Shown piece after piece: positions 3,915-37,155 of a stretch of 37,155 bases of DNA. A model generated the notes under the pieces. The model was not told the DNA's origin and did no database searches. It saw nothing but the letters and a program-made list of their open reading frames with translations. Numbering within the stretch: the first letter of the stretch is position 1; each line of letters opens with the position of its first letter. Both the position numbers and the translations under genes were made by a program. The DNA is from Candidatus Microgenomates bacterium. Lineage in GTDB: Bacteria > Patescibacteriota > Microgenomatia > JAADGY01. The stretch lies in the NCBI GenBank assembly GCA_015486555.1, contig WFRL01000058.1, positions 1 to 37,155 of the forward strand. Direction: 5' to 3'.

Positions 3915-4081
3915 CGGGATCTAGCGCAGCGCTGTGTTTTGGCTCTTTTCTCTCTTCAGGTCATTCTGAGCGGAGCGAAGAATCTAGCGAAGCGCAAATA
4001 CTTAGCTCCCAAACTTGAGTAGACACCCGTGCGCCTATCGGCTAGATCCTTCACTTCGCCTGACGGCTCGTTCAGGATGAC
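3915..4081. repeat. Cluster R2 of the palindromic element family (one full element 3960-4081 plus a truncated arm at about 3915-3934)
   Basis: Arm 3960-3996(+): GTCATTCTGAGCGGAGCGAAGAATCTAGCGAAGCGCA. Inverted arm at 4030-4081. The core carries AAACTTGAGT. Confidence 0.8.
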
Positions 4082-5788: not shown

Positions 5789-6385
5789 TTATTCTACCCA
5801 GTCTACTTTTAACTCAGCTCTTATGCTAGGAGGAAGGGTAGCTAACCATTTTTTGACTAGGAGTTTAGCCTTATCCGGCTGGCGGTAGATGTAGATGGCG
5901 ATGTATTTTTCGTTGTAATAGCGCACTCCATAGTAACTATTTGGTTTAGGCAGGTGTTGGAGAAGGTATTTTCGTTGGAGTTTTGTTTTCAAAGCCTCCT
6001 CAAATTGAGGCGAGTAACTGCCTACTCCTATCTCATTTGCTGGGGTGTTTACCTGCCATTCTTTTAGTAGTTTGTTTTTGTAATAAATCTTGAAGGTGTA
6101 AATTGTCTTTAAACGAGGAAGCTGTCTTACTTGCCAGGTAAATGTCTTTTCATTAAGGGTGTTAAGTTGGGTTTTTAAAAAGGGTTCTATAACCAGCCTA
6201 ATTTTCTCCCTTATTACCTTTTTGGAGAAGCTGACCTTAATGGTTGAGAAGTAGTTCTCTTCTTTTGGGGAGTAATTGACTACCTTTGGCGGCTGGTTAA
6301 GAAAGATAGTTGTCGCCCCGATAAGAATAGCCAGAAAACTAAGTCCAAGAATAATTTTTTTAGCTGTTACCTTCATGGTTGGCAA
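5789..6385 (-). CDS. Hypothetical N-terminally anchored extracytoplasmic protein (198 aa)
   Basis: Single N-terminal TM (IILGLSFLAILIGATTIF) followed by a beta-rich region. Its start overlaps the 3' end of the CHAP giant gene by 13 nt. Confidence 0.6.
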   Translation of the reverse strand: MPTMKVTAKKIILGLSFLAILIGATTIFLNQPPKVVNYSPKEENYFSTIKVSFSKKVIREKIRLVIEPFLKTQLNTLNEKTFTWQVRQLPRLKTIYTFKIYYKNKLLKEWQVNTPANEIGVGSYSPQFEEALKTKLQRKYLLQHLPKPNSYYGVRYYNEKYIAIYIYRQPDKAKLLVKKWLATLPPSIRAELKVDWVE

Positions 6386-9300
6386 GATAAATTATGTAAC
6401 CAACCGACTAATCTTAAACCTGGGAGGATACTCTTCCAGCCGCCATTGTTTTCTAAAGTGATAAAACGTTGGCTTACGTTGGCGCTAGCAAAAGTTAAGG
6501 TATTCAAGCCGAGTTGGGTGACTATCCCTACGTGGCCGTTTCCGCCACCTCCTTGAAAAACTAGGATATCTCCAAGAGAGGGTGTTTTCCCAGGTTGGTT
6601 AGGAATAGCCGAGAGAAAGTGAGAACAACTTTGGGGAGCATTTACCCACCAATCTCCTGCGTTACCAAAGGTTTTGTTGTCACAAAGGTTGTAAAGGCTC
6701 TGACCGTTGTAAAGGTGGCGGTAAACATCATTAACAAATTCGGTGCATTGGACGTAATGATTTTCTTTTTCTACCCAGTTGGCATCAGCCCGGATATAGT
6801 TTTTAAATGGTCCGTTCTCTCCTGTATTGCCACAATGATAGGAGTTAACGAAGTAGCCTAGGGCCGGGTTAGGATTGGCAGGGCAGTAACAATCGGCTAT
6901 TTGATTGTCGCTACAACGATAAAGTTGATTGACTAATTTCTCCGCTTCAGCAGCAATTTCTTGGCAGCCGATTAAGGGGGCTTGGCCGATAAGGGTGTTG
7001 AAGCCGGTTATCTTTTGGTATTTCTTTCCTTGATTATCCTGAATTGTTACTTGAAGAGTGTTAGCCAGGCGACTGTTTTTGTACTCAGGTTGGAGAGGGA
7101 ATTGGTAATCGACGATTTCCTCACTTCCGACTGTTAGGTCTTTGAAGTTTGAGGTTAGGTCATAGGTTAGGGTTTTAACCAGCCGGCCGCTAGGCAGTTG
7201 ACTGTCCTTGGTATAGATCTGGCTAACATCTTTAACGGCAACGATTTTTAAATCTTTACCTTCAGCCTTCATCTTAATTCGAAAAGTTAACTTAATCTTG
7301 TCCCTGGCGGCGGCATTGCTTAAGCGGGGGAAGGCACTCCTTTCATCTTTAAGGATATATTTTGAATTGACCTTATCTAAACGCAGGTTTTTATAAAGAG
7401 TAAGATATTGGGTTCCACCTGATTGATAATAGAGGTTACTTTTTAAAAAAGCAGTTGAGAGATAAGGATACCAAAAAAGAGAAGCGGCTACTAAGGCGGT
7501 TCCCCCAGGAATAACAGTTAAGGCTAGAGTAATTCCGGTAGTCGAAGTAGCAAAGGCAGTCATTGTTCCCCACAGGCTGCTGGCTAGGCTAGCTGCACTG
7601 CTTGCCAAAGTGCTTAAAGAACCAATAAGGTGCTCTAGTCCGAAACCAACGCCGAATCCGAGGAGAAAACCTACTGGGCCTCCTATAAAACCGCCTATTA
7701 AAAAACCGCCTATTAAACCAAAAAAGACAGCCAGAAGATGGCTGAGGATAAAGTTAATAATTAAGTAAAGCCAGCCGGCAATAAAAGTCAAAATTTCTTT
7801 CCACCAGCGGCGAAGGAAGGGGTAAAGATCTTTAATAAGAGCTAAAACAGCTAGAACTGTCCCCACCCCGCTGGCCAGGCCAGCCAGATCCAAGCCTAAC
7901 TTGCTTAAGACCTTAATGCTAAGTTGGCCAATTTTCTTTAGGCTCCAGATAAGGCCTTTTTTTAAGAGTTGCTTGGGATGAGTAATCAGCCAAAAACCCT
8001 TAAAGATGCGGCCAAACCGTTTTCCAGTTGGGCTGTTCTTAAATCTCTTCCACCAGGCGGCTAACTTCTTTCTAAGGGCTCTTATGCCTCGCCGTGGAGT
8101 TGCTACCACCCTTAAAAGGAAACCAGTAACTTTTTTGTGTCTGTATTTTCTTACTGTTCTGATAATCTTTAACCGAGCCTGGCGAACTCTTTTCCCTAGA
8201 AAACTTTTTCTCCATAACTTTCGAATCTTCCTCCTTACTTTCTTTCTGAGTGTCTTAGGATGAGCAACTGCCTCCACCCCTCCGAGGATTTTGTTAATTA
8301 TTGGCCAGTGGCGGCTGTTTATTACTTCCTGAACTACCCGGCTGTCTTGGACTTCTTTTTGAACATGGTTCAATCTAATACTTAGTTGGTAAGAAGGTAG
8401 GCTAAGGAGAGTAGTTAGCTTAAGGAGCGGTTGGCCGATGAGCCTGGTTTTTAATCGCTGGAACTTAAGATAACTCCGAGCCAGGAAAGGCAGTTTAACT
8501 TCTTTGAGAATGTCTTCATGATCCTTCCTCCATTTGAGCATTTCTTCAAACTGGTGGTGAAGCTTATTCCCTTCAGTAAGAGGCTTGCGAGTGGTAACAG
8601 TCTTGCCCAAAACCCGGATGGGGCTACCCTTTTTTAACCACTCGAACTCCTTTTCCACTTCTTCAGTTGGATGAAGCAGCCAGTCGTAGGCACTAAAGGG
8701 ATTTAGCCCCTTTTCAATTATTAGTTTCCGGTTGTTTTCCTTAGTAAAGAGAGACTTGAAAAGGTACTTTTTCCAGGCCCCCTTAGGCAGTCTAAACATC
8801 CGTTGGCTGGGCCGTTTAAAGATAACTCCGGTTGTGTCGATAATTTCTTTTACTTCCGGATGGGCTTGAACAAGAGGTGATTCTTGGAGAATTTTTTCCA
8901 AGGCGGAAGGAGCAATTAAAATTTTTTCGGCGGGCTTAACGTAGGTAATATAGTTAGCTGCTTGTTCAGCTAGGGTGTTTATTTCTTCCTCATGTTTGGC
9001 GGCATCTGGAATGGAAAGTTTAAGTTGGCGGCGGATAACATCTTTAGCTAAGTTCTTAAGATCGCTGCTATTAAGCGGTGCCTGGCGGCTAAAGGCAGCC
9101 AATCGGTTGACAGCTTCTAGATGATCACTTCTTTTTTCAGTTATCGAGAAGAGGCTCTTTTGTAAATCGTTTTCTAGGTCCACCGGGTGCTTTTTTAGAG
9201 AGGCTCGGAGGTCCAGCCAGCTCTGCCTAAAAATCTTGTCTTGAACATCCTCAGAAAGAAGGAGATTATCGATAATTTTTTGGGAAACTAAACTGGCTAA

Positions 9301-10107
9301 ACTGTCCTCATCTAGTTTTTCTCCTCCCCACCAAATAAGGTTATCCACAGTCTCGGCTATTGAATGAGTCAGAAGCCTGTCCATTTCTTGTTTAACTCTT
9401 TCTAGAGCCTCTTTGTTTTTAGGCAGTTTAAGATTACCCTCAAGGAAAGTAGAGGCCTGCTGGTAGAGGTCTCCTTTTAATTCCTCTACCTGCCTCAGGT
9501 CCGTAGCTGAAGGTGGAGGTAATAGCTCCACCTCCTTGGTTTCAGCTGCTGCTTCGGTTGGGGCCTTTTCCTTGAGAACCTTTTTAAAAGGAAGAATGAT
9601 CAAATAATCAACCGGCGTTTGGTTAGTTTGGTTAATAAGTTGTTTTTCAAGGGCTTCCTGGTATGTTTCAACTACTTCATCGATGGTGCTTACTTCTACC
9701 CTTTCTATTTGCTGGTGGCTGAGAACGGCTAATAATTCTTGAAGGCTAAATGTCTGTTGGAGGTTGCCCCATAAAGCCCCGTAGGCATAGGTCTCCTTAA
9801 GAAGGTTCTTAACTGTTTCGCCTAAGCCATTAAGAATCTTAAGGGAAAGAGTGAATTTTTTTGAAGGAAGATTAATGAGAAGAGTTAGTTCTGGTTGTTC
9901 TTCTAGTTCAGAAAGTGATTGATAAAGGCTTTCTAACCTTTCCTTTCGATCTTGGTGAGTAAGGATTTCTCCGCCTACTTGGACTACTCTTTCTCGAAGG
10001 CCAAGTTTTTCAACCTCAATCAAAAAAAGGAGTTTATTAAAGCACTCTAACCAGCCTTCTATATTTTGAGTCTCTTGCCAACAAGTTTTTTTCTGGGTTT
10101 CGACCAT
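6373..10107 (-). CDS. Giant (1,244 aa) membrane protein with a C-terminal CHAP cysteine peptidase/amidase domain
   Basis: No signal peptide and about 610 aa of soluble N-terminus. An extremely Lys/Arg-rich stretch lies at nt ~8010-8265 and a Gly-rich multi-TM block at nt ~7497-7875. The exodomain is Cys-rich and ends in CHAP motifs: YVQCTEFV (Cys about aa 1121, nt 6745-6747) and NGHVGIV (His about aa 1192). Confidence 0.8.
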   Translation of the reverse strand: MVETQKKTCWQETQNIEGWLECFNKLLFLIEVEKLGLRERVVQVGGEILTHQDRKERLESLYQSLSELEEQPELTLLINLPSKKFTLSLKILNGLGETVKNLLKETYAYGALWGNLQQTFSLQELLAVLSHQQIERVEVSTIDEVVETYQEALEKQLINQTNQTPVDYLIILPFKKVLKEKAPTEAAAETKEVELLPPPSATDLRQVEELKGDLYQQASTFLEGNLKLPKNKEALERVKQEMDRLLTHSIAETVDNLIWWGGEKLDEDSLASLVSQKIIDNLLLSEDVQDKIFRQSWLDLRASLKKHPVDLENDLQKSLFSITEKRSDHLEAVNRLAAFSRQAPLNSSDLKNLAKDVIRRQLKLSIPDAAKHEEEINTLAEQAANYITYVKPAEKILIAPSALEKILQESPLVQAHPEVKEIIDTTGVIFKRPSQRMFRLPKGAWKKYLFKSLFTKENNRKLIIEKGLNPFSAYDWLLHPTEEVEKEFEWLKKGSPIRVLGKTVTTRKPLTEGNKLHHQFEEMLKWRKDHEDILKEVKLPFLARSYLKFQRLKTRLIGQPLLKLTTLLSLPSYQLSIRLNHVQKEVQDSRVVQEVINSRHWPIINKILGGVEAVAHPKTLRKKVRRKIRKLWRKSFLGKRVRQARLKIIRTVRKYRHKKVTGFLLRVVATPRRGIRALRKKLAAWWKRFKNSPTGKRFGRIFKGFWLITHPKQLLKKGLIWSLKKIGQLSIKVLSKLGLDLAGLASGVGTVLAVLALIKDLYPFLRRWWKEILTFIAGWLYLIINFILSHLLAVFFGLIGGFLIGGFIGGPVGFLLGFGVGFGLEHLIGSLSTLASSAASLASSLWGTMTAFATSTTGITLALTVIPGGTALVAASLFWYPYLSTAFLKSNLYYQSGGTQYLTLYKNLRLDKVNSKYILKDERSAFPRLSNAAARDKIKLTFRIKMKAEGKDLKIVAVKDVSQIYTKDSQLPSGRLVKTLTYDLTSNFKDLTVGSEEIVDYQFPLQPEYKNSRLANTLQVTIQDNQGKKYQKITGFNTLIGQAPLIGCQEIAAEAEKLVNQLYRCSDNQIADCYCPANPNPALGYFVNSYHCGNTGENGPFKNYIRADANWVEKENHYVQCTEFVNDVYRHLYNGQSLYNLCDNKTFGNAGDWWVNAPQSCSHFLSAIPNQPGKTPSLGDILVFQGGGGNGHVGIVTQLGLNTLTFASANVSQRFITLENNGGWKSILPGLRLVGWLHNLSCQP

Positions 10108-10152
10108 AAGTCCATTTTACCCTAAGGACAGATAAGTTGCTACAATAGTAGT

Positions 10153-11160
10153 ATGGTTATTAAAGAACATCCAATTCCTCAGAATATAACCACCTATAAA
10201 TTCCGCCTGGTGGGGAATATGACTCTAGTTCAGTTCTTGGAGGTCCTAGGGGGGGTGGGTTTAGCCTTTGTCTTTTGGAAGTCTCCTCTTTACCCAATTC
10301 TTAAATTTCCTCTTGCTCTTAGTTCGGCCAGCTTAGGGTTTTTAATGGCTTTTGTTCCTCTCGAGGAGAGACCTCTTGATGTTTGGTTAGTCTCTTTTAT
10401 TAAGAAGATCTACCGGCCGACTCTTTTTATTTACCATTCTCTAGCCCACTTACCACTTTACCAAACCTATAAGCCGGAAAAAAGGGAGGAGGCAACCAAA
10501 TTAATTGCAACTAACAAACTGAATAGCTTTCTCAAAAAGAGTTCTCATTTAGCTGGGGTTTCCCAAAATGATCTTATCCATAAATACATTGATCAGCTTT
10601 TCCAAGAGGAGACAATTGAATCGTCATTCACTAAGGAAGAGAAAAGAGAAAAGAAGAAAACCCAATTACCTAAGGTACCTCCCTCCAGGTTGCCAATTAG
10701 GAGAAAAAAGATAGTTCTAGTTTCGTCCCCTCCTGAGCTGGTTAAGAAAAAAGAGAAGAAACGGGTTAAAAAACCACCTCAGGTAGAAACCATTCTCCAA
10801 ACTTCCCTGTCACCAGTTAAGATTGAGAAAAAGCCGACTGTAAAAGGAACAGCACCGACTTTTGACACATCCTTACCTCGACCAACTAAGGCGAACTTGC
10901 CTTCAGGCATCATTTTTGATGAGGCTAATCACCCCCTAGTGGGGGCAATCGTGGAAATAAAGGATAAAGATGGTCTGCCGCTTCGAGTTACTAAGACTAA
11001 TATAATTGGTCAGTTTACTTTAGTAACTCCTCTTCCTTCAGGAGAATATCTTGTAACCGTGGAAAAAGATGGTTACCAAGCTCAACCTATAAAGCTTAAA
11101 CTTGAAGGGAAAGTGGTTAAACCGTTAAAGATAAAAGCCAAAGAGGTTAAAGGTGCCTGA
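10153..11160 (+). CDS. PrgI/VirB3-like membrane protein fused to a C-terminal carboxypeptidase-regulatory-like beta-sandwich (335 aa)
   Basis: N-terminus IPQNITTYKFRLVGNMTLVQF + two TM helices + EERPLDVWL matches the PrgI family pattern. A Lys/Pro-rich linker follows. The C-terminus reads GIIFDE..PLVGAIVEIKDKDG...TNIIGQFTL..LPSGEYLVTVEKDGYQ. Confidence 0.7.
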   Translation: MVIKEHPIPQNITTYKFRLVGNMTLVQFLEVLGGVGLAFVFWKSPLYPILKFPLALSSASLGFLMAFVPLEERPLDVWLVSFIKKIYRPTLFIYHSLAHLPLYQTYKPEKREEATKLIATNKLNSFLKKSSHLAGVSQNDLIHKYIDQLFQEETIESSFTKEEKREKKKTQLPKVPPSRLPIRRKKIVLVSSPPELVKKKEKKRVKKPPQVETILQTSLSPVKIEKKPTVKGTAPTFDTSLPRPTKANLPSGIIFDEANHPLVGAIVEIKDKDGLPLRVTKTNIIGQFTLVTPLPSGEYLVTVEKDGYQAQPIKLKLEGKVVKPLKIKAKEVKGA

Positions 11161-12868
11161 GATAAACAGCTCTCCAAGGTTTATAGACCGATAAAAAGGT
11201 TTGTTGATGAAGAACCTTCCCTTGGTGAAAGACTTGCCAGTCAAAGGCAACCTTTGCTCCCCATGAGGGCCACTCAATCTGTTTGACTGTGCCTAGAGGT
11301 AGAGTAGGATCGTTTTGGTAAAGAGGCGGCGGCGGCGGCGTTTGGTCCCAGATTCGAGGAGAAGAAATGATTACCCGACGGCCATCTTTTGTCCCGTAAA
11401 GGTAGAATACAAGATGATGTTTTTTTAGGTCGGTTGAGGTTTGGATAAGAAGGTAACTGGGAAGGTCATTCTTGAATTTAAGATCAACATGAGGGGCGAA
11501 AACAGTAGCGTCAAAACCTGGCGGCGAGTTTTGTTCATAATAACCCACCCGGTAGGAATGATAATGACGTTCGATTATCGGCAGGCCAGCTTTGAGGACA
11601 GCTCGGAAAAGAGTAGTGGAGACTTGGCAGACGCCGCCACCGTCGTCAAGGATAGTTTTACCCTCTTTTATAACATATGATTGGTGGTAGCCAGTCGCTG
11701 CTGAGATCCTTCCTAAGGCTTTATTAAATGAAAAAACCTCTCCAGGGTTAACTAAGATTCCGTTGAGCCGGGAGGCGGCCAATTTTACGTTGTGCATCCG
11801 GCTAGCTGATGAGTGCCAAAACCATGATTCACCTCGCCCGACTAGTTCCTTTATGCCATAAGAGTTTGTGTCCTTAGTAGTTATCTTAGGAGGAAGATAG
11901 TTGCCTTTAATGGTTAAGGTTACTGTGGGAGGAAAGTGGTTGTCTTCTACTGTTCTAGCCAAGTCTAATTCAAGGGTTTGGAAATTTAATTGAAAGCCGG
12001 GTCGGGAAGGCCTAAAAGCAATTACTCGTCCCCCTTTAAACTCAAAGAGAGCATTTTCAGGGGTAGTATTAAAGAAAGCCTGCTTATCTTTGGCTACATT
12101 TTCTAGACTTTCTTTATCTACTGGGGCATAGAAAGAAAGAAGAGATATTTTTTCTTCAGCAGTTAACTCGACTTCTTTCTTGTTTCTTTGGAGGATAATC
12201 TTTGTTTTTAATAACTTGTAGGCCTTAGTGTAGGTCTTTCTTTTAGCTTCGTCAGATGGTTGGAGACTTATTTTCTCTACTGGTAGCTCTATTATTGACT
12301 TCTTTTCTTGAAAAACTAATTTTACTTTTGCTATGAGATTTTCTTGATCAATTTGGTAACCGTCTTTGGCTGGCAGGTAGATAAGCTTTCCCTGATGATA
12401 GCTTAACTTAGCCGCCTGGGGATAAGGCAATTCCTTCTGGAAGGCCTTTTCTAATTGATGACTGAGTTGGTGAGGGTTGATTACTATGCTAGGTTGGAGG
12501 GTTAAAGGCTGATAAAGATTGGTAGTAAAAAATAGCCATCGCTCCAGCCAACTGGAGTTTTTAAATTGCTGTTGCCAATTATCTAGACTCTTTTGAGCGG
12601 AGAAGGAAATGGCTAAATCCTTTAGATTAAAAGAATGATTTTTGCCTTGGAAAGTAAAGGTTATTTCTTGGGGATAGTTAAGGGTATTTAACTGCCCTAG
12701 GGCAAAGAAATAAGGATAGCCGCCAAGCTCTTTGTTAACTATCCTTAGTCTTAAGGGAGTAATGATTCCACTGGTAACGAGCAAACCGCTAAGGAGGTAA
12801 GAAAAAATAAGAAAGGTAATTCCTCCTTGGAGCCAGCTAGTGAAAGTTGATCGGTAATTTAGCCTCAT
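11147..12868 (-). CDS. VanW family protein with N-terminal membrane anchor (573 aa)
   Basis: DDGGGVCQVSTTLFRAVLKAGLPIIERHYHSYRVGYY is the VanW core motif. N-terminal TM present. Converges on and overlaps the PrgI-like gene by 14 nt. Confidence 0.8.
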   Translation of the reverse strand: MRLNYRSTFTSWLQGGITFLIFSYLLSGLLVTSGIITPLRLRIVNKELGGYPYFFALGQLNTLNYPQEITFTFQGKNHSFNLKDLAISFSAQKSLDNWQQQFKNSSWLERWLFFTTNLYQPLTLQPSIVINPHQLSHQLEKAFQKELPYPQAAKLSYHQGKLIYLPAKDGYQIDQENLIAKVKLVFQEKKSIIELPVEKISLQPSDEAKRKTYTKAYKLLKTKIILQRNKKEVELTAEEKISLLSFYAPVDKESLENVAKDKQAFFNTTPENALFEFKGGRVIAFRPSRPGFQLNFQTLELDLARTVEDNHFPPTVTLTIKGNYLPPKITTKDTNSYGIKELVGRGESWFWHSSASRMHNVKLAASRLNGILVNPGEVFSFNKALGRISAATGYHQSYVIKEGKTILDDGGGVCQVSTTLFRAVLKAGLPIIERHYHSYRVGYYEQNSPPGFDATVFAPHVDLKFKNDLPSYLLIQTSTDLKKHHLVFYLYGTKDGRRVIISSPRIWDQTPPPPPLYQNDPTLPLGTVKQIEWPSWGAKVAFDWQVFHQGKVLHQQTFLSVYKPWRAVYLRHL

Positions 12869-12895
12869 ATAAAAATTATGACATACCTTTACATT

Positions 12896-13262
12896 GGAAC
12901 TCGGAGCTTGGAGCTTGGAACTTGGAACTCAGAACTTAGAACTTAGAGCTCGGAACTTAGCCTGTTAACGAGTCATTCTGAGGAGCCATAGCGACGAAGA
13001 ATCTAGCGAAGCGCAAAGGTATTAGCACTCAAGTTTTTTTCTAAGCTCTTACTACGGGTTATTAATTGTTTTTCAACCTAGTTCCTCCAACCTAGTTCCT
13101 AGTTCCAATTCCCTGCGCCTTCGGCTAGATCCTTCACTTCGCCTGACGGCTCGTTCAGGATGACACGGGAGATAAGGTTATGGATTTTGGTAATTAGGTT
13201 TTTGATATTGTTTAGGACCTGCCTGCTGGCAGGCAGGTTTAGAGTTTAGGATTTAGGATTTA
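12896..13262. repeat. Cluster R3: 7-nt tandem array (12896-12960), full long-core element (12972-13164), 22-nt palindrome (13217-13238) and TTTAGGA heptamers
   Basis: ARCTYRG heptamers repeated about 9 times. Arms at 12972-13015(+) and 13114-13164(-). ACCTGCCTGCtgGCAGGCAGGT, followed by gtttagg/atttagg/attta. Confidence 0.85.
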
Positions 13263-13310
13263 TTTTCATCTGTATCCTGATAATATATTCTTAATGTTAC
13301 AATAAGGTAA

Positions 13311-13664
13311 ATGCTGGGACTAAAACTATTAACCGATGTTTTGGCAGATGATAATGGAGTTGATGTCTATGAGAACTTTCTTGTTGGCAATAAACCTTCT
13401 CCCTTTACTAATTTAGCTTCACTAATAAATCTTCTCTATAAGAGTTTATTAGTGTTAGCGGGTATTGTTTTGTTTTTTCTTCTTATTTTGGGAGGGTTTA
13501 ACTATCTAGCCGGGGCAGGCCAGGAGAAATCAAATCAGGTTGAGAAGGGAAAGAAGGCTATCACTGGAGCGATAATAGGTTTTTTGTTGGTCTTCGCTGC
13601 TTATTGGATTATTCAGATTATTAGTTTGCTCACTGGAGTGAAGATTCTTAAATCTAATCTCTAG
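13311..13664 (+). CDS. VirB2/TrbC-type T4SS pilin-like two-TM protein (117 aa)
   Basis: Two hydrophobic helices flank the loop GGFNYLAGAGQEKSNQVEKGKKAITGAIIGF, the pattern I recognise from T4SS pilin families. There is no classical N-terminal signal peptide. Confidence 0.65.
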   Translation: MLGLKLLTDVLADDNGVDVYENFLVGNKPSPFTNLASLINLLYKSLLVLAGIVLFFLLILGGFNYLAGAGQEKSNQVEKGKKAITGAIIGFLLVFAAYWIIQIISLLTGVKILKSNL

Positions 13665-13681
13665 TGTATAATTAATTAACT

Positions 13682-14047
13682 ATGCCAGAAACAGGTCTTT
13701 CTATCGGCAACAAAATTTTTGGAGAGATAAAACCGCCGTCTGCAGGTGGAAAAGTAGGTGGATATGAAAGCAGTTTTAGTGGTTTGAGCAGTTTTATTAA
13801 GAATCTTATTTACCTTATCTTTGTTGTAGCCGGCCTTTATGCCCTCTTGAATTTCATTATGGCTGGTTTTGAGTTTATCGGAGCAGGGGGGGATAGTAAT
13901 AAAATAACCAGCGCCTGGAATAAAATCTGGCAGAGCCTCTTAGGTTTGATTATTATGATCGCTGCCTTTGCTCTAGCGGCCGTAGTCGGCCAAGTTCTCT
14001 TTGATCGTTGGGACTTTATTCTCAAACCAACTATTCCCACTCCTTAG
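13682..14047 (+). CDS. Second VirB2/TrbC-type T4SS pilin-like two-TM protein (121 aa), paralog of 13311-13664
   Basis: Same architecture: LIYLIFVVAGLYALLNFIMAGFEFIGAGGDSNKITSAWNKIWQSLLGLIIMIAAF. It starts 17 nt after the first pilin-like gene. Confidence 0.65.
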   Translation: MPETGLSIGNKIFGEIKPPSAGGKVGGYESSFSGLSSFIKNLIYLIFVVAGLYALLNFIMAGFEFIGAGGDSNKITSAWNKIWQSLLGLIIMIAAFALAAVVGQVLFDRWDFILKPTIPTP

Positions 14048-14190
14048 CTTAAAGCAATTGATTCCTAGTTGTTTATTCTTTGTTAGTTAATCCCTATTAG
14101 CCTTACCTAGTTAGAGACAGATAACAATAAGGAATAGTAAACATCCAACTTATTAAAGTGCACTTGTTCTAATCTTTTTTTCCTCTCCAG

Positions 14191-14573
14191 GTCCCCCAAT
14201 AGGTCGGGGCTAGCTAAGCACCTCTATAGAAAATTCTAAATCCTAAACAATATCACAATCCTAGTGATTTAAATTCAGAACTTTTTTTCCTGGTCATTCT
14301 GACCCTCCGTGGCGGAGGGGAAGAATCTAGCCGAAGGCGCATGGATGTGCTCCCAAGCGTGGATGCCAGCACCTCTGCGCTCGCTGTTGCTCGCTAGGTC
14401 CTTCACTTCGCCTGGCGGCTTGTTCAGGATAACCGGGGGAGGTGCGCCTTCGGCTAGATCCTTCGTCGCCACAGCTCCTCAGGATGACGGGGAGGGGGCG
14501 CCTAACAGCTCGTTCAGGATGACTCCTTAGAAAGGTTTTACTTTATGACTTTACAAACTTTATGCTTTATGAG
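14191..14573. repeat. Cluster R4: degenerate arm (14191-14220), full element (14293-14433), two further same-orientation arms (14443-14488, ~14497-14523) and CTTTATG repeats (14539-14573)
   Basis: Same arm consensus as R1-R3, e.g. GTCATTCTGACCCTCCGTGGCGGAGGGGAAGAATCTAGCCGAAGGCGCA at 14293-14341. Confidence 0.85.
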
Positions 14574-14696
14574 CTACCCAACTGAATTAATTTTTTAGTT
14601 TAGTTTTGAGTTAAGTAAACGTCTATTTTCAATCTGAATTTTAATTAGGTAAGGCTCTACCCCCTCCAAAAAAGGCCTTATAGTATAATAAGGCAA

Positions 14697-17600
14697 ATGC
14701 AAAAAGAAGTTATAGATAAGCTGAAGGTATTAACTAAAGAAGATTTAAGAGGCATTCGTGTCCTTTCCCTGGGCGAAGGGTTTCAGGTCTACCGTTTATT
14801 GGAAGAAGTAGCTGAAGCCTCTACTTTACTGGAATTAGGAGATACTCGGCCGACAAGGATAGAAAACCAAGTAAAGAGTGATTTGATTAAGAGGGATGCT
14901 CTTGAAAAAGGAAATGAAGCTCTAGAGGAATTAGTTAAAAGCCGTCTTCTTTTTACTGTCCTTCTAATTGACCTCTACCATCAAGGAACAGAAGGAAAAA
15001 GAAGAGTTACTGAATTATTAGAGATTGTTTTTCCTGGGGATGACTCGAGAAAATCCCAGATAATTGACTTTTTAGAGAGTAAAGGTATAACTAACCCTGT
15101 TGGCGTTAAGGTTTTTAATGAGTTTATTAACCAGATAAAGAAAGAGGTCGGTAAAGGTTGGCCAAAAAAGGCGAGAAGAGGAAGCTCCATGAGGCAAAAA
15201 CAATACCAACTTATTAAGTGGTACTGGCGAGTGCGAGGTGTTGGTCTGCTCACTAAATATACAAGGGAGATTCGAGATCAGGGACCAGGGGCACCAAAAA
15301 AAGTAGTGTATCGGTTGAGAATGAAAGGGAAATTTATAGAGATTAGTAGATCAAAAATCATAGAGATTAATAAGTTACTGGAATCTAAGGATAAAGATAA
15401 AGGTTGGGTGGGCCCGAGAATTAAGGCAATTTTTTCAGACCCCAACCTGCAAGAAAGTCTTAAGGAGTGGTTAAAGCGTTCCAAAAAAGAGATTCTTTTT
15501 CTGAGTACGGAAAGAGATACGAGTAAGGAGGAACGGCTATTGGATTTATTAGAAAAGAAAGTGAGACAGATAAAACCGGAAGTATTTGATGAAGAGACGA
15601 GAGAACGACTTGAGGATATTAAGGAGAGAATAAACGAGAGGAGATATCAATTAAAAGATGAAACAGCCGTTGACCTGGTTGAATCAATAACCAATGAGAT
15701 GCAACCTAAAGAAGTTGTGGAAGCAAAAGGAAGATCTAATACTTGGGGTTTAAGTGAGTGGTTGGCCAAGTACTATCGAGCCTTAGACCTAGAAAGGTTT
15801 CTCAATGCTTTGGGGAGGGTTGGTAGATTCTTGAGCCAAGTTAGCAAGTATCAGAAGGAGTTTAATAAATATTTACAGGCTCCAGAGAGTGAGAAAGATA
15901 ATTTGACTCAGTCCTTTCTTTCTCTCCTTAGCGATTTATCCTTAGCTACCAACCTCTTGGAGTTAATGGCTCTTGACAGTATTAAAAGAACTAAAATAAC
16001 TTACCAAGATTTCTTTAACTATACAAGGAAAAAACAGTTAGAATTTCTTAAAGACAATAAAATTATATCTGATGATGTTGCTAGATGGTTCCTGGATGTT
16101 TTTGATTTAGAAGAGGAGATAAAGGAAAAATTTGCTAGTTTGATTGAACGAATACCCAGAAAGACAGCTAAAGAGATTTTTAAGAAGAGGTGGCAAGAGA
16201 TTAACGGAGTTGATACAAGTGATTTTGCTGAGGCACTAGGAGATTTTGAGGATTTGCTTGCAAAAAAAGACAAAGTAACTCCCGACGATTTGCGCCGAAT
16301 AGCATCTCGTTATAGTTATGAAGGTGGAATATTTGATTGGGAAAGTAAACAGAGAGATGAGTTGCGGAATCTTTTTGGTGAGGAGGGGGAGGCAGAGTTC
16401 TTAGATCTGAAAAAAAGAGAATCGTCCTTGAGTGGTGATGAAGAGGAAAAATTGAAAAAGTATTACGACAAGTTGCGCAGTCGGATGTATCAGATTTTAA
16501 ATGACCAGATTCTTGGAGTCAATCAAGAATATGGAAGCCAAACTGTTTTGGAGCCGACTATTCGGATTATTGCTTTGTTAGCTCTTCTGCCTCGAGCAGA
16601 AAGGTCTAATTTTTATGGCTTTCTTTTTGCTTCTAAGTTTGACGTTGCTAGATTGCAGATTAAAGATCTTAGTTACCAGCCTTTCGACCACATTAAGATT
16701 AATGGCCTTCAGGGTTTAGAGTTTGAGATAAATGTAGAAGAAGGAAAAACAGAGACCTTGACTGTTTTTGATTTTTTAGATGTTTGGGAGGAACCGGCGA
16801 ATAAATACTTTGTTCACTCCCAGGAACGTGATAGATTAAAAGATCCTAAAAAGTGGGAAAGTTGGGTTGTTCAGTATGCTCTGGCTTTAACAGAGAGTGA
16901 ACGGCAGAAGATTGAAAAGGCAGTTATGAAGCAGACGGTCAAGGAACGTTTAGGTATAGAGTACGATGAGTTAAGTAGCGAAGAGAAGAGTAAAGTTGAG
17001 GTTCTTATGTTGGCTGCTTTAGGAGTGTCTAATGCTACCTTTAGGTCAGCCTTTATCCACACCGGCGCTGACATGAAAGAAACCGGACTCCTTAAAGGAT
17101 TAATTGGCTCCTCATTAGCCGCAGAACTTTATATCAATCTGTATGGTGGCTTGGGGCTTAGTCAGGAGATAATAACTACTATGTCCGATGTCCTTTCCCG
17201 AACTCGGAAGGGTAGGCTTCCTATCCTTGAGTATATTACTAAAGATGAAGACGTGTTTGGAAATAATGAAGATAAAAAAGAAATATTTAAAAATGGGATG
17301 AAGGTTCTTTTCCTTTTACCAATGAATAATGGCTTCCGCCGGATAGGTGAGGTTCATTTATTAGCTCGAGATAAAGAATTGAGGGAGGAGTTATTTAGCC
17401 ATCCCCTGGTGGCGGAGATGATTACTTTAATTGATACTACACCGGAGCTAAAGGAGAAATTAATAAACGTGTTTGAACTTAAGGGAAAGAAAAAGCCGCT
17501 TGATGCAAAACAGGTAGGAGCTCGAGAAATTTTAACTAAAATAATGGAGAAGTGGAGCTATCATTATCTTTTACGGAATGAAGAAAATAAAGAAGAAGAA

Positions 17601-18446
17601 TTTCTTCCTATTAAAGCGGCTGATTACGGTGATTATATTAAATACTCTCAAGCCTTTGATGCCGTAAAAGGTGATCTTTTTAATTTTGCTTACCGGCCAA
17701 CTAAGCCTCTTTTGATAAAAATTTATACCACGCTGGCTAATACTTCAGCTGGTCCAGAATTTGCTAAAACCTTTATGAGGCCATTAATAAGTGATTATAT
17801 TGATTTTTACAAGCCCCGCGGCTTAACAAAACCAATCTTAGGTTTACCTTTCTTACCCTTAAAGATGCTCTCTAATCTCCTTTCAGGGAAAAGGATCCTC
17901 AGCCGGGAAGATTATCTTGATCTTTTCCAGGCTAGAGTTAAAAATCCAAGTAAGAGGATAATGGGGGCGGAGGCAGGTGGAGAGGTGGCCCATTATGATT
18001 TGGTGAAAGGGCGCTGGGTGTTTGAGGAAAAACCAGTTTTGGAACTTTGGAGAGAAAAGTTCCACCGGCGAACGGTGGGGGAATATGGTGAGGAGACTGA
18101 GGAAGGTCAGGGAGTAAGTGAAAAAGCTATGTCGAGGGTGGATATGTTACGCCACTTTTGGTTAATGGCCAAAGGAGAGGCATCAATTGCTACCCTTCTT
18201 GGTCTGGACGATGCAGTTATTAAGAGGAAAGATTTGGTAGATGACTTAGTTGAGTTCCGGAATATGCATATAATTGATGCCCCAATGTTTAATAGTCTTA
18301 TTCGGGAAAAGTTTGGTTTTTGGTTTTATCTGCAGTACCGTTTCCATTTAGGTGGGCTTGAGTTCACCACCCTATTAGATTTTTTGGGCAGTGGGATAGG
18401 AGTAGGTCTTTCTTCGGCCTTGAGTGAAGGATTTAAGACTCGTTAA
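14697..18446 (+). CDS. Giant (1,249 aa) orphan protein, predicted mostly soluble and helical, with a short C-terminal hydrophobic segment
   Basis: Uninterrupted 3.75-kb ORF with Glu/Lys-rich composition. I can see no signal peptide, P-loop or catalytic motif. The last ~40 aa (LEFTTLLDFLGSGIGVGLSSAL) are hydrophobic. Confidence 0.75.
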   Translation: MQKEVIDKLKVLTKEDLRGIRVLSLGEGFQVYRLLEEVAEASTLLELGDTRPTRIENQVKSDLIKRDALEKGNEALEELVKSRLLFTVLLIDLYHQGTEGKRRVTELLEIVFPGDDSRKSQIIDFLESKGITNPVGVKVFNEFINQIKKEVGKGWPKKARRGSSMRQKQYQLIKWYWRVRGVGLLTKYTREIRDQGPGAPKKVVYRLRMKGKFIEISRSKIIEINKLLESKDKDKGWVGPRIKAIFSDPNLQESLKEWLKRSKKEILFLSTERDTSKEERLLDLLEKKVRQIKPEVFDEETRERLEDIKERINERRYQLKDETAVDLVESITNEMQPKEVVEAKGRSNTWGLSEWLAKYYRALDLERFLNALGRVGRFLSQVSKYQKEFNKYLQAPESEKDNLTQSFLSLLSDLSLATNLLELMALDSIKRTKITYQDFFNYTRKKQLEFLKDNKIISDDVARWFLDVFDLEEEIKEKFASLIERIPRKTAKEIFKKRWQEINGVDTSDFAEALGDFEDLLAKKDKVTPDDLRRIASRYSYEGGIFDWESKQRDELRNLFGEEGEAEFLDLKKRESSLSGDEEEKLKKYYDKLRSRMYQILNDQILGVNQEYGSQTVLEPTIRIIALLALLPRAERSNFYGFLFASKFDVARLQIKDLSYQPFDHIKINGLQGLEFEINVEEGKTETLTVFDFLDVWEEPANKYFVHSQERDRLKDPKKWESWVVQYALALTESERQKIEKAVMKQTVKERLGIEYDELSSEEKSKVEVLMLAALGVSNATFRSAFIHTGADMKETGLLKGLIGSSLAAELYINLYGGLGLSQEIITTMSDVLSRTRKGRLPILEYITKDEDVFGNNEDKKEIFKNGMKVLFLLPMNNGFRRIGEVHLLARDKELREELFSHPLVAEMITLIDTTPELKEKLINVFELKGKKKPLDAKQVGAREILTKIMEKWSYHYLLRNEENKEEEFLPIKAADYGDYIKYSQAFDAVKGDLFNFAYRPTKPLLIKIYTTLANTSAGPEFAKTFMRPLISDYIDFYKPRGLTKPILGLPFLPLKMLSNLLSGKRILSREDYLDLFQARVKNPSKRIMGAEAGGEVAHYDLVKGRWVFEEKPVLELWREKFHRRTVGEYGEETEEGQGVSEKAMSRVDMLRHFWLMAKGEASIATLLGLDDAVIKRKDLVDDLVEFRNMHIIDAPMFNSLIREKFGFWFYLQYRFHLGGLEFTTLLDFLGSGIGVGLSSALSEGFKTR

Positions 18447-24014: not shown

Positions 24015-24275
24015 TTAGTTGTCTTCCTCGAACATCCGCTTAAAAGTAGGATCATTTTCCTTGAGGTACTCAATCAACATAGTGGCATGTTCTTTTTCCT
24101 CATCGCGATTGTGTTCTAAAACCTTTTTCAACCTTTCATCCCTAGTAGCTTCTATTCTTTCTTGATAAAGATTGATAGCATCTAGCTCTTCAATTAAAGA
24201 CTGGCGAGCCCGAGTTAAGTTTTTACTTTTTTCCTCCATTTTAGGAGCATCGTTTAAATCTAAAGGTGGCATCAT
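24015..24275 (-). CDS. Encapsulated-ferritin (EncFtn)-like four-helix/ferritin-like protein (about 86 aa from the SD-preceded ATG)
   Basis: IEELDAINLYQERIEA...LEHNRDEEKEHATMLIEYLKENDP closely resembles the EncFtn core with its E...ExxH metal ligands. AAGGAGG lies just upstream of the ATG ATG at 24275/24272. The longer ORF-track N-terminus lacks an RBS. Confidence 0.7.
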   Translation of the reverse strand: MMPPLDLNDAPKMEEKSKNLTRARQSLIEELDAINLYQERIEATRDERLKKVLEHNRDEEKEHATMLIEYLKENDPTFKRMFEEDN

Positions 24276-24362
24276 TTCCTCCTTGGTTAAGTTAGTAATC
24301 TCTGTTTCTATAATAACATCCATAGGATAGAAATAACCAATTATCAAATTCCAAGGAGACAA

Positions 24363-25276: not shown

Positions 25277-25882
25277 ATGAAAAAAATCGAAACAATCTGG
25301 CACCATATTTTATGGTCGGCCTTGATCAAAAAGCAATATCGCCAAACTCAAAAAGGTTTGGCCCAACAGTTCGCTTATTCTCTAAGTACAGTTCACCATG
25401 CCTTAAAAGTGCCGGTGAAGATAGGAGCAATAAGGAAAGACCACTGGGGGTTTGTTCTCACTGATTTTAAAAAACTCCTTTTTTATTGGGCCAGTGTCAG
25501 AGGTCTGGAAGCCAACATGGTTTACCAAACTTATGTTAACCTGCCGGTAAAAGAGTTGGAGGCTGAGCTCCCTGGTGAAGGAATTTACGGCGGCTATAGC
25601 GCCGCTAGATTTTGGTTTCTAGAGTCCCCAGCCGATTATGACAAGGTTTTTTATTACTTTCAGGATGTTGAGCTGCTGAAGCGCCGATTTCCGCCAAATA
25701 CCCGTTATCCTGCCAATCTTTTTATCCTCAAAACCCAAAATCTTGAGAACTATCGGAAAATTTATCACCAAGAATACACTACCTTGCCCCATACTTTTGT
25801 TGATATTTGGAATCTTTCTGATTGGTATGCCCAAGAATTTATTAAGGCCTTACAAGAAAAAATTGATGAATTATTATTCTAA
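25277..25882 (+). CDS. wHTH protein, AbiEi-like putative antitoxin/transcriptional regulator (201 aa)
   Basis: N-terminal HTH-like segment (YRQTQKGLAQQFAYSLSTVHHALKVPVKIGAIRK) plus a C-terminal domain. Overlaps the downstream nucleotidyltransferase gene by 17 nt. Confidence 0.5.
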   Translation: MKKIETIWHHILWSALIKKQYRQTQKGLAQQFAYSLSTVHHALKVPVKIGAIRKDHWGFVLTDFKKLLFYWASVRGLEANMVYQTYVNLPVKELEAELPGEGIYGGYSAARFWFLESPADYDKVFYYFQDVELLKRRFPPNTRYPANLFILKTQNLENYRKIYHQEYTTLPHTFVDIWNLSDWYAQEFIKALQEKIDELLF

Positions 25883-26474
25883 TCTTATCACTGAAAAAAG
25901 CTGGCAGGAGCTAGGAAGCCTTAAGAGGCTAGTTGACTTTGTCTTGATTGGAGGCTGGGCGGTTTATCTTTATACCCAAGCTTTAAAGTCTAAAGATATT
26001 GACATCCTGATTGGCTATGGACAGCTTGAAAAGTTAAAGCAAAGATATGTAGTCTTTAAAAATGGCCGCTTGAAAAAGTATGAGGCAAGAAGAGGAGAAA
26101 TTCAGATTGATGTTTACCTTCCTTATTATTCTCAGATTGGTATTCCAGTAGAAGATCTGATAAGCCACACAGTAGTCCTTTCCGGATTTACTACTTTGGA
26201 AGTTGAATATCTCCTGACTACCAAAGTTTACGTTCTTTCTCGGCGTCAAAACACCCCCAAGGGTAGGAAAGATCTAGCTGATATCCTCGCTTTGTGGCGT
26301 TATGCCAAGGTAGACCCTGCTTTATTTAAAGCGATAATTCGCCAGTATTCTCTTGGGAAAGAATGGTATTCTTGTCAAAAACAAGTTTATGTTCTAAGCG
26401 ACTTTCCAGAATTAAAACTCAATCATTATACCTTTGCCAGGTTTAAGAAATATTTGCAGCAGGTGGTGGATTAA
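25866..26474 (+). CDS. Minimal Pol-beta-fold nucleotidyltransferase, AbiEii-like putative toxin (202 aa from ATG 25866)
   Basis: hGG-x13-DIDI (VLIGGWAVYLYTQALKSKDIDILI), a third acidic strand (IQIDVYL) and a C-terminal GRKDLADILAL motif. The ORF-track TTG start at 25743 lies inside the upstream gene and is unlikely. Confidence 0.55.
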   Translation: MNYYSNLITEKSWQELGSLKRLVDFVLIGGWAVYLYTQALKSKDIDILIGYGQLEKLKQRYVVFKNGRLKKYEARRGEIQIDVYLPYYSQIGIPVEDLISHTVVLSGFTTLEVEYLLTTKVYVLSRRQNTPKGRKDLADILALWRYAKVDPALFKAIIRQYSLGKEWYSCQKQVYVLSDFPELKLNHYTFARFKKYLQQVVD

Positions 26475-29120: not shown

Positions 29121-29275
29121 CCAACCTAGCTTCTAGTTCTAATCCCCATGCGCCTGTCGGCTAGATCCTTCGTCGCCCCAGCTCCTCAGGATGACGAGGA
29201 ATAAATTTTTAATTTGAAATTTTAATTTCTTTCCGAGCCCTGAGCTCTAAGTCCCAAGTTCCGGACTCCAATGAC
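29121..29275. repeat. Cluster R6: half element (core heptamers 29121-29147, arm 29149-29195) plus CYRAGYY heptamer array (29231-29275)
   Basis: TGCGCCTGTCGGCTAGATCCTTCGTCGCCCCAGCTCCTCAGGATGAC, followed by ccgagcc/ctgagct/ctaagtc/ccaagtt/ccggact. Confidence 0.8.
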
Positions 29276-37037: not shown

Positions 37038-37155
37038 AACCTTCCTCTCTCCACGTCATCCTGAACGAGCCGTCAGGCGAAGTGAAGGATCTAGCCGAAG
37101 GCGCATGAGAGTTAACTTAAGTTTGGGTGCCAATACCTTTGCGCTCGCTCCGCTC
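37038..37155. repeat. Cluster R7 of the element family (arm 37055-37105, core, start of inverted arm at 37140; cut by the window end)
   Basis: GTCATCCTGAACGAGCCGTCAGGCGAAGTGAAGGATCTAGCCGAAGGCGCA, then ...GGGTGCCAAT...TTGCGCTCGCTCCGCTC. Confidence 0.8.

Follow-up and report, generated by a model that had tools for sequence, protein, structure and literature searches.

The 37-kb stretch of DNA analyzed here (contig WFRL01000058.1, referred to as the window) comes from a Microgenomates-related lineage. Within positions 5789-18446, it carries a block of envelope genes that we interpret, with a probability of roughly 0.8, as the membrane and cell-wall half of a relaxase-less Patescibacteria type IV secretion system (T4SS), separated from its ATPase genes by rearrangement. 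The block encodes a PrgI/VirB3-like protein of 335 amino acids (aa), two tandem VirB2-type pilins, a 1,244-aa protein that ends in a CHAP domain (the CHAP giant), a 1,249-aa helical protein, a 198-aa protein with one transmembrane (TM) helix, and a 573-aa VanW protein. It thus combines a PrgI/VirB3 homolog and VirB2-type pilins with the absence of a relaxase and a chromosomal housekeeping context, as in the Patescibacteria T4SS. A preliminary description of this DNA had already read the block as T4SS-like, and this reading was correct. The four pieces that it listed (the CHAP-ended 1,244-aa protein, the PrgI/VirB3-like protein, the pilin pair, and the motif-free 1,249-aa protein) are real, with open reading frames (ORFs) exactly where they had been placed. 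However, the inventory had overlooked the VanW/PG_binding_4 gene and the 198-aa gene.

Orthologs of the block adjoin VirB4 in relatives

The block was compared among contigs of the window's own species (L001-L005), a sister at ~79% identity (L007 and L086), a further sister at ~52% (L006), and relatives in which the cluster is still joined to VirB4. The latter are the distant loci L009 and L010, and L013 (Candidatus Beckwithbacteria CG10_big_fil_rev_8_21_14_0_10_34_10, Microgenomates group). Both L009 and L010 carry, in this order, dnaN (with dnaA upstream in L010), a VirB4-type ATPase of 605-611 aa (domains DUF87, AAA_10, and P-loop_TraG), a TraC-like protein of 236 aa, a PrgI/CarboxypepD_reg protein, a 198/199-aa protein, and the CHAP giant, followed on the opposite strand by a homolog of the 1,249-aa protein. 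All four corresponding window proteins (198-aa, giant, PrgI-like, and 1,249-aa) are full-length homologs of these cluster members (blastp). In L013, the giant, a 196-aa protein, PrgI, TraC-like protein, and VirB4 are encoded in one direction beside dnaN and dnaA, and no homolog of the 1,249-aa protein was detected in this locus.

An anchor search with the conserved PrgI-like N-terminus retrieved 66 metagenome loci, which were annotated with hidden Markov models (HMMs) built from our own alignments. TraC-like and VirB4 genes lay immediately after the PrgI-like gene in 39 of the 40 loci that extended at least 1.2 kb downstream, in a set that is biased towards this PrgI subfamily and is no census. 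Linkage to VirB4 is therefore the ancestral and prevailing state.

The window has a different order: Gmk, adenosine kinase, the 198-aa protein, and the giant, then the PrgI-like gene on the other strand, VanW, the two pilins, and the 1,249-aa protein. This split order is common to L001-L005, L007, L086, and L006. The PrgI-like gene does not adjoin a VirB4 gene in the window, L006, L007, or L086, whereas in L009-L013 the two are connected through the TraC-like gene. The window lineage is a derived and stable split, in which the link to VirB4 was lost by rearrangement and VanW and the pilin pair were gained. The GroEL region sits on a different contig in the sister species, and the window lineage is therefore much rearranged. 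The preliminary description had raised the question of whether the gene neighborhood is conserved in related genomes. Synteny is indeed kept in the sister lineages down to 52% protein identity, which rules out a chance juxtaposition.

All genes of the block are under purifying selection. The ratios of nonsynonymous to synonymous substitution rates (dN/dS; Nei-Gojobori, window versus L007) lay between 0.05 and 0.16: 0.05 for pilin 1, 0.08 for VanW, 0.10 for the 198-aa protein, 0.11 for both the giant and the PrgI-like protein, 0.125 for pilin 2, and 0.16, the highest of the block, for the 1,249-aa protein. The housekeeping neighbors adenosine kinase and Gmk gave 0.08 and 0.04. The two giant proteins of 1,244 and 1,249 aa had been described as flanking orphans. 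This part of the preliminary description did not hold: both are conserved, and because they adjoin the VirB4 cluster in relatives (L009 and L010) and are under selection, they are parts of the same cluster.

Table 1. Features of the T4SS block in the window (coordinates are window positions)
Feature	Position	Strand	Basis
198-aa bitopic membrane protein	5789-6385	minus	TM prediction; homologs beside giant
CHAP giant, 1,244 aa	6373-10107	minus	Pfam CHAP; TM cluster; full-length homologs
CHAP peptidoglycan amidase/endopeptidase domain of giant, residues 1117-1208	6484-6759	minus	PF05257
TM-helix cluster of giant, residues ~740-880	7468-7890	minus	Hydropathy
PrgI/VirB3-like protein, 335 aa	10153-11160	plus	Pfam PrgI and CarboxypepD_reg; ortholog linkage
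VanW + PG_binding_4 protein, 573 aa, N-terminal TM helix	11147-12868	minus	Pfam VanW, E 3.8e-44
Repeat-rich intergenic region 5' of pilins	12869-13310		14-nt tandem repeat and dispersed-repeat copies
VirB2-type T4SS pilin 1, 117 aa	13311-13664	plus	PF18895
VirB2-type T4SS pilin 2, 121 aa	13682-14047	plus	Paralog of pilin 1
Repeat-rich intergenic region 3' of pilins	14048-14696		Dispersed-repeat copies; inverted arms with upstream region
1,249-aa clade-restricted protein	14697-18446	plus	HMMER; linkage to CHAP giant

The PrgI/VirB3-like protein

In the 335-aa protein, a two-helix hairpin at the N-terminus (residues 7-89) is joined by a linker rich in Lys and Pro to a CarboxypepD_reg beta-sandwich (residues 251-317) that scored above the Pfam cut-off. 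The PrgI/VirB3-like N-terminal signature noted earlier was borne out, although the window protein itself stays somewhat below the threshold of PF12666 (PrgI). Its L013 ortholog passes (32.7 bits; cut-off 27), and because the two are connected by tblastn at E 2e-44, the window protein belongs to PrgI by transitive homology. The hydrophobic helices of the TM hairpin (residues 23-41 and 49-70) lie inside the most conserved part of the protein.

Identity to the L009 and L010 orthologs was 41-45% (blastp). The N-domain was 63-88% identical to the orthologs from L006, L007, L009, and L010, and 54% identical to that from L013. This range breaks down into 84-88% among split lineages, 63-72% between split and joined lineages, and 63-66% between joined ones. 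The role of PrgI/VirB3 proteins is to bind VirB4. The N-domain, the part expected to do so, is still conserved in the split lineages, which is unlike the expectation for a machine without a motor.

The pilin pair and the surrounding repeats

The preliminary description had recognized two tandem two-TM proteins as VirB2-type pilins. This was confirmed for pilin 1 by its score against PF18895 (T4SS_pilin; 33.3 bits, above the cut-off of 26.6), and for pilin 2, which stays below the cut-off, by its being a paralog. Pilin 2 is divergent, with 30% identity to L006 pilA (E 3e-8). Two hydrophobic helices were predicted in each pilin. Both also resembled the Mbov_0395 pilin-like family (NCBIfam NF045849), with E 1.6e-5 and 5.6e-4 (24.5 and 19.6 bits), far below its cut-off of 40.

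In L010 (18974-20835), the T4SS_pilin domain forms the C-terminal part of longer proteins (235 and 368 aa). They are encoded ~5 kb from the core, past genes for L25, an adenosine-kinase-like protein, Gmk, and YchF, and adjoin a SpoIID-domain protein. Because Gmk and the adenosine-kinase-like gene lie near the T4SS region in L010 as well, this association appears old.

Both intergenic regions that bracket the window pilins are rich in repeats. In the sister species, the gap downstream of the pilins measures 76-100 bp and has no such region. A tandem repeat of 14 nt (TTGGAACTCGGAGC-like) is present in four overlapping copies upstream of the pilins (12894-12963), with a partly complementary copy at 13077-13109. 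Dispersed intergenic repeats were found at 232-484, 4034-4081, 13110-13165, 14320-14525, 29153-29171, and 37055-37102 of the window, so that they occupy both contig ends, the junction at 3.8-4.2 kb (a synteny break relative to the sisters), and both sides of the pilin pair. Their motifs GCCTTCGGCTAGATCCTTC and CGGCTCGTTCAGGATGAC each occur in 7 copies, compared to ~0 expected by chance. The copies flanking the pilins form inverted arms (13168-13217 with 14241-14290). The repeats also occur in contigs of the same species and at other places in a sister genome, but the T4SS block of the sisters has none. The family looks like miniature inverted-repeat transposable elements or repetitive extragenic palindromes (MITE/REP-like). 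It may lie behind the rearrangements, and it probably causes the assembly breaks.

The CHAP giant

The 1,244-aa protein begins with a ~735-aa N-domain that lacks a signal peptide, continues through a Lys/Arg-rich juxtamembrane stretch into 3-5 TM helices, and ends with a beta-sandwich (residues ~899-1069) and the CHAP domain. According to the positive-inside rule, the Lys/Arg-rich stretch before the TM cluster suggests a cytoplasmic N-domain and a C-terminal part that lies outside. The CHAP peptidase proposed earlier for the end of this protein stood up well. It matched PF05257 with E 1.4e-11 and 45.1 bits (cut-off 26), and its catalytic Cys (QCTEF) and His (GHVGIV) are intact in the window protein and kept in five of six family members. 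Weaker matches were obtained to the endolysin family PHROG 8781 (E 3.8e-5) and, among PDB sequences, to the CHAP domain of PcsB (E 0.015).

Homologs aligned with the giant over its full length (blastp): 52% identity for L006, 28% for L009 (E 1.5e-119), and 27% for L010 (E 1.7e-116), the last two over ~1,340-1,410 aligned columns. In the joined relatives, the protein has 1,322 and 1,376 aa (L009 and L010) or 1,037 aa (L013). HMM matches in L013/L027, L014, L016, L018, and L033 spanned HMM positions ~650-1050. Therefore, the juxtamembrane region, the TM cluster, and the beta-sandwich are the sole part of the giant that is conserved out to the Beckwithbacteria-like loci. In contrast, the enzyme at the C-terminal end is variable. 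The window clade, L009, and L010 have CHAP there, whereas L013 has an HExxH motif. In L030, a 1,054-aa protein with the same position and architecture carries Amidase_2 in place of CHAP, its equivalence resting on homologous flanking genes. Because the terminal wall-hydrolase module is exchangeable, we argue that the giant would do the job of VirB1/PrgK/TraG.

An AlphaFold2 model of residues 600-1244, built from 8 sequences, gave predicted local distance difference test (pLDDT) values of mostly 74-93 for the beta-sandwich and 75-87 for CHAP, and was poor in the TM region. Foldseek returned only generic Ig/arrestin/RhoGDI-like matches for the beta-sandwich.

The preliminary description had likened the giant to the Gram-positive conjugation hydrolases PrgK and TraG. 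This comparison is sound for function (the wall-hydrolase job), but not for architecture. Pfam and NCBIfam revealed no SLT, LytM, or lysozyme domain in the giant, and no sequence similarity to PrgK/TraG was detectable outside CHAP. Membership in the PrgK/TraG family was rejected, as the giant lacks SLT/LytM and the N-terminal anchor, and its TM cluster follows the ~735-aa N-domain. The giant was also considered as VirB6. With 3-5 TM helices only and no VirB6 match, it is not demonstrably VirB6.

Neither giant protein matched anything in 72,556 plasmids (tblastn). Word-indexed homology searches with both retrieved only close relatives, as did a family-profile search, and saturation by low-complexity words is probable. 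The giant of L086 (6288-10004; GCA_054005255.1; 97.6% identical to L007) is broken by an in-frame stop (a substitution, with no insertion or deletion) into ORFs of 573 and 659 aa. The interruption of the giant in L002 (3581-3674) is merely a 100-N scaffold gap.

The 198-aa protein, VanW, and the 8-TM family

The gene for the 198-aa protein, which overlaps the end of the giant gene, is always located directly downstream of it. The protein has an N-terminal TM helix (residues 11-29) and an ectodomain of ~170 aa. Gene callers start the ORF at the ATG at 6376, which gives 195 aa. Homologs adjoin the giant in L006, L007, L009, L010, and L013, with 34-77% identity and E 2e-33 to 2e-81. The identity to the L009 and L010 proteins (198 and 199 aa) was 34-37%, and the L013 counterpart has 196 aa. 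No match was found in Pfam, PDB, or PADLOC, and the family profile remained blank among PDB sequences even at E 10. A VirB8/PrgL-like identity would fit the size and topology, but neither the PDB profile search nor a consistent Pfam hit gave it sequence support.

The VanW and PrgI-like genes share 14 nt at their 3' ends. VanW is found at this spot in the window, L006, L007, and L086 and is missing from it in L009, L010, and L013. It represents a lineage-specific insertion into the module. As VanW is conserved here in the split lineages alone, it may have been recruited to the module, or it may simply mark the breakpoint.

No VirB6/TrbL/PrgH-type polytopic subunit was found in the window, and nothing matched the Pfam VirB6/TrbL model. 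In relatives, a family of ~480-498-aa proteins with 8 TM helices is encoded in L006 (506-1957; 483 aa), after the 1,249-aa homolog, and in L010 (14248-15744; 498 aa), beside that homolog. Proteins of ~480 aa with 8 TM helices are also encoded directly upstream of PrgI in many distant loci (L050, L055, L057, L065, and L066). The family has no Pfam match. Because homologs of the L006 protein adjoin the 1,249-aa homolog in L010 and precede PrgI in distant loci, the 8-TM protein appears to be the best candidate for the VirB6 slot. In the Beckwithbacteria-like loci L013, L018, L027, L030, L032, and L033, the giant is preceded by a different protein of ~240 aa with 5 TM helices. Neither this protein nor the 8-TM family occurs in the window.

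The 1,249-aa helical protein

The 1,249-aa protein had been described as having no recognizable motif, and it indeed matched nothing in Pfam, NCBIfam, PHROG, PADLOC, or PDB sequences. An exhaustive HMMER search of 1.84 billion cluster representatives with residues 50-1249 gave seven matches: two close (80% and 49% identity), four distant (1,026-1,413 aa, 26-32% identity, E 5e-23 to 2e-12), and one that is probably spurious. The homologs in L009 and L010, which lie back-to-back with the CHAP giant, were matched by blastp with E 5e-28 and 1e-16.

The family shares a core of ~650 residues (~600-1220) with ~60 invariant positions. The protein contains 33% charged residues and no Cys, signal peptide, or TM helix above threshold. 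It ends in a short Gly-rich hydrophobic tail, the last residues of which are basic in most members, and this tail may anchor the protein to the membrane. It is predicted to be almost wholly alpha-helical. The AlphaFold2 model was of low confidence (mean pLDDT 50.7; predicted template modeling score 0.28), and Foldseek found nothing below E 0.05 for it. Kinship with the N-domain of the giant was rejected by hhalign (probability 0.2%). Because the protein is constantly linked to the giant and to the 8-TM protein and keeps both its length and its core, we favor a component of the cytoplasmic face as its putative role.

The missing motor and alternative explanations

The preliminary description had found no VirB4/VirD4, relaxase, or VirB6-like gene near the block, and this absence holds across the whole 37-kb window. 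None of the module proteins contains a Walker A motif. A scan of a genome collection for VirB4 with narrow patterns gave three loci, none of them from the window's lineage. Because the orthologs adjoin TraC-like and VirB4 genes in L009, L010, L013, and nearly all of the anchored metagenome loci, the genes for the motor most likely lie in another part of the genome, and we strongly favor this over an apparatus without an ATPase.

Several observations weigh against a T4SS half with a distant motor. The VirB4, TraC-like, and 8-TM proteins of the relatives gave nothing better than E 0.4 when searched against the whole window (tblastn), and the relatives' longer contigs contain no T4SS ATPase within ~10 kb beyond the window ends. 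Two of the assignments lie below their family cut-offs: residues 7-89 of the PrgI-like protein match PF12666 with E 4.7e-5 and 24.3 bits (cut-off 27), and pilin 2 reaches 22.3 bits against PF18895, with E 0.008 for TrbC. The Amidase_2 giant of L030 has no detectable sequence homology to the CHAP giant. The 1,249-aa family was seen in only a few lineages, and it therefore cannot be a universal part of the machine. In addition, structure models are poor for the TM region of the giant and for the 1,249-aa protein, fold searches were uninformative, and the putative roles of the 198-aa protein, the N-domain of the giant, and the 1,249-aa protein are drawn from topology and gene linkage.

The absence of an ATPase from the 37 kb and the extended flanks would also be expected if the lineage had truly lost VirB4 and TrsD, so that the pilins, the PrgI-like protein, and the CHAP giant with its partners now form an ATPase-independent surface or cell-wall organelle for host attachment. 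The stability of the split across three sister lineages and the recruitment of the VanW wall protein into the block are compatible with such a loss. However, we consider it quite improbable, since the VirB4-binding N-domain of PrgI remains 84-88% identical within the split lineages (dN/dS 0.11), VirB4 directly follows the PrgI-like gene in 39 of 40 related loci, and, to our knowledge, no VirB2-type pilus assembles without VirB4. Moreover, scattered T4SS genes are already documented in Microgenomatia, according to the excerpts of PMC12102498. There is likewise only a slim chance that a lineage without VirB4 builds a new host-contact organelle, ATPase-independent or differently powered, from the pilins, the PrgI-like protein, the CHAP giant, and the 1,249-aa protein, as nothing positive supports an apparatus without an ATPase. 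The block could also be taken for a degraded integrative conjugative element (ICE) or a chance juxtaposition of unrelated envelope genes, given the repeat-rich regions that bracket the pilin pair and the weak resemblance of the pilins to Mycoplasma ICE pilin-like proteins. This is hardly credible in view of the conserved synteny, the purifying selection on all genes, and the even GC (guanine plus cytosine) content. Furthermore, genes for an integrase, a relaxase, or a coupling protein were not found by domain annotation of the window, housekeeping genes flank the block, and neither giant protein matches any of the plasmids searched.

A further alternative accepts the module as part of a T4SS, but regards the 1,249-aa protein as a translocated substrate or effector for the host bacterium. 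The protein is large, lineage-restricted, and fast-evolving (dN/dS 0.16; 21-24% identity to distant homologs), has neither a signal peptide nor a TM helix, and carries a conserved short C-terminal tail that is basic at its end in most members. Its gene also sits beside the machinery, as the genes of many T4SS effectors do. In contrast, the length and the ~650-residue core with its ~60 invariant positions are kept across deep divergence, the position back-to-back with the giant is fixed, and no enzymatic or toxin domain and no adjacent immunity-like gene were detected. We therefore regard an effector as rather unlikely, and as less likely than a platform role at the cytoplasmic face.

A possible mechanism

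The Patescibacteria T4SS derives from the monoderm conjugation machinery of the mating-pair formation class MPF-FATA. If the block is the membrane and cell-wall half of such a system, a VirB4 hexamer and a TraC/TrsD-like partner, both encoded elsewhere, would dock on the N-terminal hairpin of the PrgI-like protein. The giant would be anchored N-in by its 3-5 TM helices and would display the beta-sandwich and CHAP outside the membrane, with the 198-aa bitopic protein as a putative partner on the wall side. Its ~735-aa N-domain and the 1,249-aa protein could together form a docking or assembly platform at the cytoplasmic face. Local cleavage of peptidoglycan peptide stems by CHAP would allow the channel and the pilus to cross the wall, and the two pilins would polymerize into a short pilus that touches the host bacterium. 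Such a system probably serves an episymbiotic lifestyle rather than conjugation or DNA transfer. This agrees with the system of Southlakia epibionticum, which is essential and has no relaxase according to the excerpts of PMC10633639 and PMC12857230.

Other features of the window

The GC content of the window is even (~0.38-0.44), and its genes are mostly housekeeping: GroES/GroEL, guanylate kinase, adenosine kinase, an AddA-type helicase-nuclease, LeuRS, MurJ, TerC, and one tRNA-Gly. The long intergenic regions gave no match in Rfam and tRNA scans, a scan for promoters and terminators did no better than on shuffled sequence, and PADLOC defense models did not match. Positions 24015-24362 and 25743-26474 encode an EncFtn-like ferritin and an AbiEii-like nucleotidyltransferase, the latter with 22.0 bits, slightly below the cut-off. 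At 32777-36951 on the minus strand, a 763-aa protein without a family match precedes a GH39-like glycosyl hydrolase of 628 aa encoded in the same orientation, with a 4-nt overlap of the ORFs, and the two are another unexplained large pair of envelope type. In the relatives L080-L083, a RuBisCO large-subunit gene is located directly 5' of GroES.

Comparison with known systems

The Patescibacteria T4SS is reported to be essential for epibiotic growth, with pilin arrays and no relaxase (Wang et al. 2023, excerpts of PMC10633639), and to be located near dnaA/dnaN with VirB2 arrays, again without a relaxase (Quinonero-Coronel et al. 2025, excerpts of PMC12102498). According to the latter excerpts, only 22.6% of the VirB3 homologues in Microgenomatia are associated with virB4. 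In published surveys, equivalents of VirB1, VirB6, and VirB8 were hard to find in this class. The system is essential in the one cultivated model. The locus and its relatives are of value as a source of component candidates: a polytopic giant with an exchangeable hydrolase (CHAP, or HExxH or Amidase_2 in its equivalents), a bitopic partner of ~198 aa, an 8-TM protein in the VirB6 slot, and a 1,249-aa protein that is specific to the clade and closely tied to the machine. The locus further illustrates that annotation anchored on virB4 neighborhoods misses half of the system in rearranged genomes. The locus is thus useful for annotation and target choice, and does not overturn the known picture.

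Among other systems, PrgK of pCF10 and TraG of pIP501 resemble the giant in being membrane-anchored, with an extracellular CHAP domain, encoded in a T4SS operon next to a PrgI/VirB3 gene, and with a presumed local opening of peptidoglycan. PrgK and TraG have one N-terminal anchor and a lytic transglycosylase domain, plus LytM in PrgK (excerpts of PMC12102498 and, in part, established knowledge). The giant, in contrast, has no SLT/LytM, a putatively cytoplasmic N-domain of ~735 aa, a mid-protein TM cluster, a beta-sandwich, and no plasmid homolog. The Rickettsiales rvh system with its "extended VirB6" proteins shares dispersed T4SS islands, duplicated divergent pilins, and very large membrane subunits with added hydrophilic domains (the scattered rvh genes are reviewed in PMC12857230, and the Rickettsia islands are cited in PMC12102498, both as excerpts). 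However, rvh is a diderm MPF-T system, the giant described here is not demonstrably VirB6, and relatives encode a separate 8-TM candidate. The Mycoplasma ICE pilin-like proteins (NF045849, Mbov_0395) are likewise small two-helix proteins to which both window pilins show weak matches, but the window pilins score far below the family cut-off of 40 and have no ICE context.

The closest counterpart is the Patescibacteria T4SS as known from Southlakia epibionticum (SEML1_0006-0019), which is likewise chromosomal, lacks a relaxase, and combines PrgI/VirB3 with divergent VirB2-type pilins and wall hydrolases. In relatives of the locus described here, the cluster also adjoins dnaA/dnaN and includes VirB4 and a TrsD/TraC-like protein. 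The locus differs in that the cluster is split from VirB4, the TraC-like gene, and the 8-TM VirB6-like gene, that a polytopic giant of 1,244 aa carries the hydrolase as its C-terminal module, that PrgI carries a C-terminal CarboxypepD_reg domain, and that the 198-aa partner and the 1,249-aa helical protein are added conserved members. The preliminary description had called the combination undescribed as an architecture. This does not apply to the relaxase-less, pilin-bearing chromosomal T4SS, which has been published (PMC10633639 and PMC12102498), but it does apply to the giants, since the excerpts of these two papers describe neither them nor the 198-aa protein. What appears to be new here is the linkage of two giant proteins and a 198-aa partner to the Patescibacteria T4SS, as conserved partners within a small Microgenomates-related clade. 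Rather than a new apparatus, the module is a rearranged sub-cluster of a system whose kind is already known.

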